From a bacterium (GTDB lineage Bacteria; SAR324; NAC60-12), in the NCBI GenBank assembly GCA_965233585.1, contig CBDDTI010000735.1:1-10877 (forward strand): a DNA stretch of 10,877 nt, in the 5' to 3' direction. The notes beneath the pieces are model-generated. The model ran no database searches and was not told the DNA's origin. It saw only the letters and a list, made by a program, of their open reading frames with translations. Each line of letters begins with the position of its first letter. The first letter of the stretch is position 1. Made by a program: the position numbers and the translations under genes. Shown here one piece after another: positions 2,614-5,842 of the stretch.

Positions 2614-3693
2614 GGCTTACATAGCAATAATAATCAGTAAAACACTACTTTTTTCGTAGTCCGATAAACGACTGGATTTCGCATGGAATAGAGAACAAAC
2701 TGGATGAAACATAATGCATGAATTGTCACCATATATGCTCAAAGACTGGCCTATGCTTTAACCTCATTAGCGGTGAGCCCGCTAAAACTAGACCTACAAC
2801 CTTGAACAGAATAAAATGAAAAATAGAAGCACCCCGTCCCAATTTAATGATGTACTCGTGCTACAACGAAAAGGCGCCATATTTCCATCATTGAAATGGG
2901 GAGATGGGTGGTCTTAATTTTCCATCCATTTTGTCCTGAAGATTGTAGATCCCATTTTCCTGAGTAGAGAAATGCTTTTTCCAAGGAACGATCAGCTAAG
3001 CTAAACACAGACGAACCAATATTAATGCACAGCACAGACTATATTGGCGAAAACGCACTTAAACAAGACATCACACAACAGTCAACACCATGCGTAAATC
3101 GCACAATCAAACACTTTCGCGGCATTGCTTAAGGCTTACATAGCAACTTAATTTGTCAGTAAAACAATAATTTTTTGCGGTCTGATAAACAGCAGGATTT
3201 TGCATGGAATAGATAACAAACTGAATGAAATAAAGTGCACGAATTGCCACCTTGTCGACCTTGTCTGCACAAAACTGTCCAATGGTTCAATGCCATTAGA
3301 GACCGCTAAAACTAGACCTAGATCCAATTTTCGTGAGTAGAGAAATGCTTTTTCCAAGTTGCGATCAGCTAAGCTAAACACAGGCTTAACAATATTATTG
3401 CCTAGCAGACTACTTTGGCGAAAGACATACATACCTGCCAACACTGTGCGAAAATCACACAATCTTTCACTTTCGCGGCACTGATAACAAGGCTATCCAC
3501 AACCAGGCATAATCTTTTCATGTTTAACGTAAGCGAAATATCATCGAATAACTCAAAAAAAAGTCGGCCTAGAGGTAAATAAACACCTCTGGACTTTTCT
3601 CTCAAACTCGTCTTATGCAAGTTCCCGGATGTAGAGTCACACGCTGGCGGGGAACACAATAGAACTGTAGAACTGATTTTCAAAAAAAATGTC
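2614..3693. repeat. Diverged tandem duplication of an unclassified repeat (period ~519 bp; second copy has an internal deletion)
   Basis: GGCTTACATAGCAA at 2614 and 3133; CCGCTAAAACTAGACCTA at 2779 and 3303; TGAGTAGAGAAATGCTTTTTCCAAG...CGATCAGCTAAGCTAAACAC...CACTTTCGCGGCA in both ~2950-3125 and ~3325-3480. Confidence 0.9.
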
Positions 3694-4364
3694 TTGGCCT
3701 GGGTCAACATTGACCTGCAAGTTTGCTCTCACCTAACTCATTTGACTCCTAAAACTGCACTAAACTTTTATTAACTGATTTCGAGGAATATGAAAATCGT
3801 CAGAATTTCAGCAAAATAAACTATTTTTAGCCCACTGGCCACTTAGAGTTCCTATAAAGTGTTTATTCCTCTTGCTCTTCACTAGACGCCCTTCCGATCT
3901 CACTGAGCACTAGACGCGCAAAGCATTTTCCGCACGGTGGTACTGCTCTTTGGTCTTGCTGCCGGATTTGGCGGCTAAGATGAAAAATTCGCCATCGAGC
4001 CTGCATCATCTCGGTTTCCCTCTCATCGACCACACCCCCTCGTACGAAAACTAACTCGTGTTTGCTAATGCCAAATATAGGCGTGTCCCTATCAAACACA
4101 ATGTCTTTGCAAAAGTGTGACTTTGGGGCTGGTAGATGTACAGGCTGTCCCTCTGACATAAGAAGAAGATCGTGCCACAGTATTATTTGGGGGCTCCAAC
4201 GAAAGTCGTTTAGAAAAATGACTTCGGAATGCTCCACCCCCACCCATGCGAAGGTAGTGGTGGCTGGATTCGAAAAGGTTTCGAAGATGACAGTAAGTGG
4301 TTGTAAACAAAACAAATTTGATAGCAAGGCTGGTACTACGGCAAGGGCAATTGAAACTTTAATG

Positions 4365-4405
4365 GGCCAATATTTCGACTAGCAGAGCTAGTCTTCTTCA
4401 GGGCC
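4365..4405 (-). ncRNA. Minimal type I hammerhead ribozyme (minus-strand copy)
   Basis: Exact reverse complement of 4433-4473. Confidence 0.85.
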
Positions 4406-4432
4406 AGTACTAATACAACTAGTACTAGTACT

Positions 4433-4473
4433 GGCCCTGAAGAAGACTAGCTCTGCTAGTCGAAATATTGGCC
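4433..4473 (+). ncRNA. Minimal type I hammerhead ribozyme (plus-strand copy)
   Basis: Stem I GGCC(4433-4436)/GGCC(4470-4473); CTGAAGA(4437-4443); extra A; stem II GACTAGC-TCT-GCTAGTC; GAAA(4462-4465); palindromic ATAT stem III; predicted cleavage after ATT (4469). Confidence 0.87.
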
Positions 4474-4892
4474 CATTAAAGTTTCAATTGCCCTTGCCGT
4501 AGTACCAGCCTTGCTATCAAATTTGTTTTGTTTACACTTCAAGTGACGTCTGGTACGTGAATTTCTACAAGAGATCCGGCAACAGAGTGGCCAAGTTGTT
4601 TTGTTCGACGTTGTGTGGTTCTCCTGCATTCAATCGTTTGTTACAAGTGGTTGTAGCAGGAAAGTCTTGGCAGAATTAACAGGTCCCACTAGAAGTATAT
4701 TGCGGAATTTACCCCTGCTTTTGTCCAGTAAGTTAATGACTGCTTCAGCAAACGATTGGTGGGAAAGTCTGTTCATATCACAATTTATTGCCTCTTTCCT
4801 TTTCTTTCCCCCTTTTGTTATTAGGTCCCACGTGATCTCGTTCTCCACGTTACAGTTCATTTCAAGGGATTGTAACGAAAGTCTCACGCTCA

Positions 4893-5433
4893 GACAACCT
4901 TGGACGTATTGTCTTGGAAATTTCCCCCGCGTCCCAGTTCACTGTTGGAGATACCAACGCAATCAATGTACACGAATATTTACCCCAACATTGAAAAGAA
5001 GGGAGGGGGGAGTTTTTTTCCAACATTTGAGACCAAGATTGCAGATGCAATTTTCCTGAGTCGACAAATGCTTTTTCCAAGGAACGATCAGCTAAGCTAA
5101 ACACCAACGTAGCAATATTAATGCCTAGTGCAGACTATTTTGGCGAAACCACACTTAAACAAGACATCACATACCTGTCAACACCATGAGGAAATCACAC
5201 AATCACACACTTTCGCGGCACTGATAAGGCTATCCACAACCATGCACGCATAATCTTCTCAGGTTCAACATAAGCCAAACATCATCAAATAACTCGGAAA
5301 AACTCAGCATCTTGGCAAATAAACAACTCTGGACTTTTCTCTCTCACTCGTCTTATGCAAGTTCCCGGATGTAAAGTCATGCACTGCTGGGGAACACAAT
5401 ACAACTGATTTTCACACGGAAAAAAACTATGTC
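4893..5433. repeat. Third diverged copy of the repeat at 2614-3693
   Basis: Shares AAATGCTTTTTCCAAGGAACGATCAGCTAAGCTAAACAC with ~2970, and CTCTGGACTTTTCTCTC..ACTCGTCTTATGCAAGTTCCCGGATGTA..GGGGAACACAATA with ~3587-3661. Weaker similarity extends left to ~4893 (ACAACCTTG, compare 2796). Confidence 0.88.
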
Positions 5434-5577: not shown

Positions 5578-5842
5578 ACCCTAAGCGATGCTGTCAGCAG
5601 CGAAAAGCTTTCTCTGTAGTAGTTTGCATTTTTTAATGCAATTTTTTTCGTAGCTTTTGCCATTGTTATTGTTAATTAGTTACTTATCTTGAATTTAAAT
5701 TTAGTCGTTTCTCGTATTATAAACGGTCTCTTCTGAAGATGTATGTCAAAACATACGAAACTTCAAGTTAAAGTCAAACAATTTTGTTTTCCAACATGCG
5801 TTTTAATGTCATGTTTGTCACTGCGGTTTGTGTGCTATTTCT
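5578..5842 (+). mobile_element. Second PLE 3'-end fragment, related to the element at 1-2007
   Basis: 5578-5622 reads TLSDAVSSEKLSL** versus ALNENVGSEKLLLY* (ending 1769). Same CTTCTGAAGATGTATGT...CATACGAAAC hammerhead and downstream CAACATG...ATGTTT...GTTTGT.TG.TATTT. Confidence 0.85.
5730..5767 (+). ncRNA. Minimal hammerhead ribozyme, probably impaired
   Basis: CTT/AAG stem I; CTGAAGA(5733-5739); stem II GTATGT-CAAA-ACATAC; GAAA(5757-5760); stem III ACTT in place of palindromic ACGT. Confidence 0.72.

Follow-up and report, generated by a model that had tools for sequence, protein, structure and literature searches.

Two head-to-head 3'-end fragments of a Penelope-like element, each with a minimal hammerhead motif, very probably account for a perfect 235-bp palindrome

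How does a mismatch-free palindrome with a hammerhead motif on each strand come to lie in a contig filed under a bacterial genome? The question is raised by positions 4302-4536 of contig CBDDTI010000735.1 (C735) of assembly GCA_965233585.1, the whole of which (10,877 nucleotides, referred to here as the window) was analysed. A first-pass annotation had described this palindrome as a protein-less and very recent product of a Penelope-like element (PLE). Our analysis arrives at a closely related answer: the stretch 4306-4644 is very probably a single, recent, dead-on-arrival PLE insertion, composed of two fragments of the element's 3' end that are joined head to head, each with a minimal hammerhead ribozyme (min-HHR) motif, and enclosed by an 11-bp target-site duplication (TSD). 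Only the non-coding 3' end of the element would thus have been copied, twice and in opposite orientations.

The palindrome itself is as the annotation had claimed. Compared letter by letter, its arms (4302-4412 and 4426-4536) are exact reverse complements at 111/111 positions and surround a 13-nt centre, ATACAACTAGTAC; a repeat search of the window returned the same pair as 115-nt arms of 99% identity. The outer ends of the arms mark the limit of complementarity, with no pairing beyond them, and the stretch to the right, 4537-4644, has no inverted partner. The predicted RNA of positions 4290-4660 has a folding energy of -242.9 kcal/mol, compared with -96 ± 5.5 for 100 shuffled versions (z = -26.7; 0/100 as low), and by this calculation the palindrome is far beyond chance expectation. 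The same energy model, which yields a hairpin of ~115 bp, agrees with the earlier claim that read-through RNA would fold into double-stranded RNA of arm length. Such a hairpin is a fair prediction for a read-through transcript, and the ribozyme would be buried within it; the siRNA or ADAR effects and the transcripts from the centre that the annotation had also put forward are hypothetical.

The borders of the insertion extend beyond those of the palindrome on one side only. A single 339-bp stretch (4306-4644) lies between a left TSD copy, AAGTGGTTGTA at 4295-4305, and an identical right copy at 4645-4655, whose 11 letters are ambiguous at the contig joint described below. Its left part, 4306-4418 on the minus strand, covers about -6 to 107 of the parent unit; it is a 5'-truncated, inverted copy of the PLE 3' end, and its outer end lies at an internal end site of the family, here called site A (...GTTTTGTTTAC). 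Its right part, 4426-4644 on the plus strand, is a direct and likewise 5'-truncated copy, a 219-nt unit ending at the usual 3' terminus, site B (...CAATCGTTTGTTAC). An inverted copy does therefore adjoin the 5' side of a minimal-hammerhead PLE 3' end, as had been proposed. The 108 nt between sites A and B (4537-4644, plus strand) occur in the direct copy only and form a one-sided extension, or tail. The letters TGTA at 4302-4305 are common to the TSD and the inverted arm. When the parent 3' untranslated region (UTR) on contig C209 was compared by BLAST, its positions 233-348 aligned to window positions 4417-4302 at 97%. Homology to the parent carries the inverted copy to ~4417/4418, 6 nt past the perfect arm, and the direct copy may begin at 4422; therefore, about 4-7 central nucleotides have no match in the parent. 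The junction letters CTAGTAC (4419-4425) repeat the adjoining TAGTAC and are absent from the parent at that place, judged against the upstream sequence of C145, C209, C669, and C69.

A site without the insertion was also found. Logan contigs of four runs were placed on 4150-4800, and contigs that join 4294 directly to 4645 (350 letters skipped, with 11 letters that fit either side) are present in runs X1 (n = 1) and X5 (n = 2), which belong to two studies. At flank letters the joined contigs depart from the window (8/109 for X1; 6/90 and 8/90 for X5), and they are probably derived from a paralogue or a divergent haplotype, rather than from the same allele. It should be noted that X1 and X5 contigs over 4618-4800 show no differences from the window, and with 27 element-side letters they fall short of the 31-letter rule and were not counted as bridging. 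In the runs, contigs with loose ends at 4411-4418 go on into sequence of the parent. Depth over the insert reached 10^3 to 10^4 versus 10-130 on the flanks (sums over Logan contigs and not copy numbers), so the family must be very abundant in the sampled runs. Contigs of an RNA library (X16) cover parts of the element, which is no proof of transcription. The single TSD around both copies indicates that they entered in one integration event.

The source of both copies is found within the same assembly. The 219-nt unit has 11 matches in these 12 Mb, including C145 (100% over 217 nt), C124 and C338 (99%), C209 (96%), and C532 (77%), and homology extends upstream of the unit in C145, C209, C669, and C69. 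The genome search with 4426-4644 that the annotation had recommended indeed leads to an autonomous parent: C209 has a 458-nt 3'UTR that closes with the unit, carries the hammerhead motif, and follows an open reading frame (ORF) in which GIY-YIG is recognised (PF01541 at 32.4 bits, with a cut-off of 22.6). Inspection of the C209 translations revealed a DKG motif, a CxxC within the GIY-YIG region, and a C-x5-C-x2-C linker, all of which are PLE features in the accessible text of Craig et al. 2021 (PMC8557442), where the linker is typical of the Neptune and Nematis clades; going by this linker motif, the C209 family may be Neptune- or Nematis-like. A LINE insertion breaks the parent ORF between its reverse transcriptase (RT) and GIY-YIG parts. 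The order that defines a PLE, an RT with DKG upstream plus GIY-YIG at the C terminus, is present on C209, with the RT domain match (RVT_1) below threshold. Because the unit runs colinear with the 3'UTR of an element that encodes RT and GIY-YIG, the insertion is a 5'-truncated copy of an autonomous PLE and not a member of a separate protein-less family, and it combines the features of a PLE insertion, namely 5' truncation, a TSD, a 5'-truncated copy in inverted orientation, and a tail on one side. The identity of the arms to each other and of the unit to C145 further indicates that the insertion is recent. A protein-less and very recent PLE product is accordingly a good description of the locus, given a parent with RT and GIY-YIG domains, the 11-bp TSD, the empty site, and the identical sequences. 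Just upstream of the parent RT ORF, C209 also carries an unrelated foldback-type element (14698-15375), a near-perfect palindromic repeat of 678 bp that matches itself on both strands and is abundant in the assembly, with copies on about 20 other contigs at 77-98% identity.

The ribozyme motif occurs once per strand as an exact string, at 4433-4473 (plus) and 4405-4365 (minus), and both copies are also matched by our min-HHR descriptor. Their senses diverge from the centre, in agreement with the earlier description, and the descriptor places position 17 (U17 = 4469 on the plus strand; H17 = 4369 on the minus strand) exactly where the cut sites had been expected. In the plus-strand copy, the catalytic boxes are CUGAAGA (4437-4443) and GAAA (4462-4465), with U16.1 at 4468 and an unpaired extra nucleotide, A4444, after A9. 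Helix I is GGCC/GGCC (4 bp), helix II is GACUAGC/GCUAGUC (7 bp) with the loop UCU, and the motif itself supplies neither a helix III nor a loop 3, although the residues A15.1-U-A-U16.1 (AUAU) are self-complementary. The minimum free energy structure of the monomer is exactly helix I plus helix II (-16.9 kcal/mol). Among the hallmarks of min-HHRs in the accessible part of PMC4209133 are the absence of helix III and loop 3, palindromic positions 15.2-16.2, an unpaired nucleotide after A9, a G10.1-C11.1 pair, and helices II and I of 7-8 and 4-5 bp, respectively. Judged by its letters, the motif has every one of these and fits the min-HHRs of metazoan PLEs. The same text gives no detectable cleavage for single min-HHR motifs and only low activity for dimers. 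By analogy, self-cleavage of a single-arm transcript would be doubtful; min-HHRs are thought to act only as two paired sense copies.

The descriptor, which required G10.1-C11.1 and helix pairing, found 57 matches in the assembly versus 0, 0, and 0 in three shuffles. An extra nucleotide follows A9 in 57/57 matches, the descriptor having allowed none or one. Sister families have GAAAUAU-H in common and carry helices I and II that are different yet paired, which gives no independent support because pairing was required by the descriptor. Diverged copies show core-breaking changes (C3 to A in C532; G10.1 to A in the left arm of L019), as expected for dead copies. A search with the exact 37-nt pattern of a collection of genome contigs, which possibly leaves the window's own genome outside the set, returned 0 loci. 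The same assembly also contains canonical type I hammerheads (RF00163), at least 7 of which exceed the cut-off; in these, helix III has 2 bp and its loop is a palindromic AGCU. The window motif has the catalytic boxes and type I topology of these hammerheads; unlike them, it lacks loop 3, carries the additional A behind A9, and pairs 7 bp in helix II.

The 3' ends of the family make clear why the palindrome reaches no further than 4536. These ends were counted over the assembly copies and 13 metagenome loci, retrieved because they match 28 nt of the hammerhead motif exactly, a choice that biases the loci to intact motifs. L025 (at a contig end, without a 3' end) and C344 (a 57-nt fragment) were left out, L030 was counted once as the same locus as L020, and the 77% copy C532, aligned to unit position 213, was counted with site B. 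Site B is the end of 10/19 direct copies (...CAATCGTTTGTT(AC), unit 217-219), each with a different flank, and in five assembly contigs the unit's 3' end is indeed followed by unrelated flanks. Another 7/19 end raggedly at site A (...GGTTTTGTTTAC, unit ~103-114), and the remaining 2/19 end elsewhere (C69, with a break at unit 81, and L022, with both arms ending at unit ~66-68). Both sites have TTTGTT(T)AC in common. The outer limit of the palindrome (4302-4306 and 4532-4536) coincides with site A, and 4537-4644 is the stretch from A to B; thus, the palindrome stops at 4536 and is followed by a one-sided tail because the inverted copy ends at site A and the direct copy at site B. A PLE tail is described in the accessible text of PMC8557442 as a 30-40 bp extension at one insertion end only, and in vitro work ascribes it to two sites at which reverse transcription starts (PMC11167929). 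A second terminus of this kind was also sought in the ACUU...GUAUG motif family, where homology ends 71-81 nt past the cut site in 13/14 other copies, with no clear second end.

The head-to-head arrangement is not confined to the window. Within the family we found it in five cases, namely the window, C338, and the metagenome loci L031, L019, and L022. In C338, a TSD of 11 bp (TTGAAAACATA) encloses an inverted part (unit 51 to about 101) and a direct part (unit 51-219) that are joined at a palindromic TTAA without a spacer, and in L031 an 11-bp TSD (TATCAAATTAT) encloses an inverted part of unit 2-108 and a direct part of unit 190-217. The cases of L019 and L022 are either older or more complex, and the arms of L019 start 22 nt apart. 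The inverted arm ends at site A in 4/5 cases, L022 being the exception, and the TSD is 11 bp in all three cases in which it is readable (the window, C338, and L031). Short microhomology of 3-8 nt is present at the joints of inverted arms and flanks, TGTA being that of the window. Divergent pairs are likewise seen in other PLE families of the assembly: of eight contigs with two or more min-HHRs, six have divergent pairs, one a convergent pair, and one a direct pair, with arms of 117-1360 bp. A further divergent pair, of a canonical-hammerhead PLE lineage, is on C658, where type I hammerheads (RF00163) lie on opposite strands about 170 bp apart, at 4511-4555 (minus, 45.3 bits) and 4726-4770 (plus, 32.5 bits).

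How might the inverted copy have arisen within one integration event? Both cut DNA strands would be the likely primers of reverse transcription, the top strand using the inner site A and the bottom strand site B, and the fresh cDNA may or may not have been copied by fold-back as well. The inverted and direct parts of L031 do not overlap, and therefore its inverted copy must have been primed on its own. Two-strand priming is backed by this locus, by the site-A ends of the inverted arms, and by the extension of both strands by PAc, the Poseidon element of Anolis carolinensis (Frangieh et al. 2024, PMC11167929). As a tentative proposal, which we would put at somewhat short of even, the family may preserve natural traces of PLE integration, having two preferred start sites of reverse transcription 108 nt apart (...UUUGUU(U)AC), with the inverted copy seemingly always started from the inner and the direct copy from the outer site at a fixed 11-bp staggered cut. 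If this were true, it would provide in vivo support for, and an extension of, two-strand two-site priming, which has been seen only in vitro for one lizard PLE, and PLE tails could be three times longer than described.

Several findings weigh against our reading of the locus as a PLE insertion made in this way. The Rfam hammerhead models gave no match when the window was scanned at E<=1 and 4420-4490 at E<=10, so the Infernal check that the annotation had suggested came out negative, and an RF00163 scan of the whole assembly did not return the motif among its 28 matches, with 150 of 1699 candidates scored. Rfam models miss min-HHRs, however, and negative scans are thus compatible with one; since no covariance model detects the motif, we base the hammerhead call on the published min-HHR descriptor features. 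A modelled double-hammerhead dimer (-28.8 kcal/mol) is less stable than two separate monomers (-33.8), which agrees with the low activity, seen for dimers only, in the accessible part of PMC4209133 and with protein-assisted cleavage (PMC11167929). The ORF upstream on C209 has only a weak RVT_1 match (19.2 bits, E=0.001), under the Pfam cut-off. No upstream pseudo-long terminal repeat (pLTR) or tandem copy was found in the 12-Mb assembly, in which the 3'UTR is present once on C209 and the other copies run off short contigs. In addition, the 108-nt tail exceeds the published 30-40 bp, none of the listed Logan contigs of the four runs over 4150-4800 bridges the palindrome centre (4412-4426) or spans the whole stretch, and both arms break at the same parent position in the window, C338, and L022, which fits fold-back better than two independent primings.

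This last point is the strength of fold-back (snap-back) copying as the sole mechanism, by which a cDNA primed at the usual 3' end would have copied itself without any second-strand priming. The two copies in the window break off at parent UTR positions 233 and 234, those of C338 meet at the TTAA without a spacer, and both copies of L022 start at reference position 219. Yet the non-overlapping parts of L031 and the 22-nt offset in L019 do not fit such an origin, which also leaves unexplained why four of five inverted arms stop where seven simple copies end, and PAc extends both strands in vitro (PMC11167929). We therefore regard fold-back alone as unlikely, and a mix of two-strand priming and fold-back copying as possible. 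The palindrome could also be a fold-back artefact that the assembler created or collapsed, the true locus being a simple insertion or one with longer arms. PLE inverted structures do trouble short-read assemblies (PMC8557442, accessible text), and because no listed contig bridges the centre, its exact letters rest on one assembly. The left flank, however, is joined to inverted element and the right flank to direct element, between matching TSD copies, so that an inversion joint must exist. Moreover, some of the central letters are absent from every parent copy, and similar structures are present in C338 and in the separately assembled metagenome contigs L019, L022, and L031, all of which make an artefact very improbable.

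Origins other than PLE retrotransposition are more improbable still. The annotation had also called the element retrozyme-like, and a non-LTR retrozyme or another non-autonomous hammerhead repeat that spreads via circular RNA would likewise be short, protein-less, and hammerhead-bearing; animal retrozymes have even been argued, in the accessible part of a preprint (10.64898/2026.07.22.740005), to derive from PLE pLTRs. This label is not supported for the present family, in which tandem direct repeats of the unit occur in 0/8 assembly copies and 0/13 metagenome loci, the unit is colinear with the 3'UTR of a protein-coding RT/GIY-YIG element, and the copies are 5'-truncated at varied points. We give a comparably slight chance to a selected hairpin-RNA or miRNA-like gene, or to a foldback element or miniature inverted-repeat transposable element (MITE), that is, a DNA transposon whose termini are inverted repeats. 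In favour, the hairpin is highly stable, and the sub-threshold Rfam look-alikes on the window are miRNA and snoRNA models, such as mir-4079 (33.3 bits versus 62) and mir-BART21 (31.6 versus 70), but these scores are far under the gathering thresholds and any long hairpin would give such matches. The other family copies are mostly non-palindromic with differing inversion points, and the insertion is asymmetric, with a 108-nt tail on one side and ends (4306 and 4644) that are not inverted repeats of each other.

As a PLE insertion, the locus resembles several known systems. The min-HHRs of metazoan PLEs (Cervera & De la Pena 2014, PMC4209133) have the same CUGANGA and GAAA boxes, the same hallmarks, and the same place in the PLE terminal repeat or 3' end, and dual min-HHRs 100-700 bp apart on opposite strands are already known from the accessible text of that study. 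The present motifs differ from those published there in belonging to a new sequence family, in their AUAU dimer helix III and U17, and in lying 100 nt apart within a perfect palindrome. The insertion architecture matches that in the accessible text of Craig et al. 2021 (PMC8557442), which cites Evgen'ev & Arkhipova 2005 and Arkhipova 2006 for it, in its 5' truncation, head-to-head inverted copy, one-sided extension, and TSD. Unlike the typical insertions described there, it is a miniature of 339 bp without an ORF, in addition to its longer extension and the lack of a tandem or pLTR copy in the data examined. Thus, the inverted 5'-truncated copy, the one-sided tail, and the opposite-strand min-HHR pairs are all already in print, and what is new is the sequence family.

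The closest mechanistic likeness is to PAc, in which two alternative RT start sites define the tail. In vitro, both DNA strands are cut and extended by PAc, which would give head-to-head copies, and its hammerhead, the cleavage of which is protein-assisted, is dispensable for insertion (PMC11167929). In PAc the start sites adjoin each other, both in an AC-rich stem-loop within the ORF start, whereas those proposed for the window family are 108 nt apart in the 3' region at ...TTTGTT(T)AC. PAc also starts without homology (PMC11167929), whereas the window family has microhomology at its inverted-arm joints.

A further parallel is offered by human L1, in which twin priming, reportedly proposed by Ostertag and Kazazian in 2001, is said to give 5'-inverted insertions. 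There, the other cut strand acts as a second primer at a site within the RNA, which places an inverted 5' part within one TSD, and L031 looks exactly alike. In the window, by contrast, the inverted part is no continuation of the direct part but repeats it (107 nt), and the enzyme would be that of a GIY-YIG PLE and not of a LINE with an apurinic/apyrimidinic endonuclease (APE).

The insertion lies within an interrupted host ORF. Two ORF pieces on the minus strand, the upstream half at 4645-4938 with a P-loop-like motif (GPVNSAKT) and the downstream half at 3863-4303, are separated by the 339-bp insert. The upstream half had no Pfam or PHROGs match and the downstream half no Pfam, PHROGs, or PDB match; for the latter, Atlas clusters gave Parvo_NS1 and RNA_helicase (carried by 29% and 24% of members) as a lead only. 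Searching the assembly with both halves by tblastn returned a single weak relative, on C177 at 34%, so the empty-site form is known from the runs and not from the window's own assembly. As part of our best explanation, the gene that was hit is multi-copy and the insert is in its coding region. Direct repeats of 76-96% identity at 2634-3667 and 5035-5407 (families D1-D6, D8, D13, D16, and D17; spacings of ~356-373, 521-524, 1723-1741, and 2096 bp), situated upstream of the interrupted ORF in the minus-strand sense and further on, suggest tandem paralogous gene or pseudogene copies. Any function of the locus itself is improbable. As a perfect inverted repeat of 111 bp within a gene, it is a natural source of hairpin RNA.

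Taken by itself, the insertion carries little weight: it is of a textbook PLE type, and the eukaryotic contig around it was placed in the bin of a bacterial genome. The family is of modest use, as it provides a small, clean set of TSD-bounded head-to-head insertions on which two-strand priming and fold-back models can be compared. That C735 is eukaryotic is clear from its PLEs, a LINE-bearing relative, a Tc1/mariner-like gene, and the hammerheads. The assembly was filed as a prokaryote genome (12.0 Mb in 747 contigs, 92% complete, 2% contaminated), 732 of its contigs are shorter than 50 kb and total 8.5 Mb, and the runs that hold C735 are labelled coral or marine metagenome; much of the filed genome may be host DNA that is invisible to the completeness check.

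The remainder of the window contains other repeats. The annotation had assigned its two other hammerheads to a family separate from that of the palindrome, and indeed the motifs at 1892-1938 and 5722-5768 belong to another one, the ACUU-CUGA[A/G]GA-U-GUAUG... family, which is the commonest in the assembly (15/57 descriptor matches). The first is part of a decayed PLE at 1-1940, with a DKG motif at ~130-160, frameshifted ORFs to 1769, and H17 of its min-HHR at 1934; the related motif at 5722-5768 is solo. ORF fragments at 8131-8908 (minus) match DDE_3 (PF13358, E=8.9e-7) and a paired-box-like domain (PF00292, E=3.5e-7) and represent the remnant of a Tc1/mariner-type transposase. Finally, short tandem repeats are present at 9190-9239 and 10593-10658, comprising four 20-nt copies that overlap, spaced 10 bp apart (unit CTGCCTTCCG), together with a 33-bp unit present twice.

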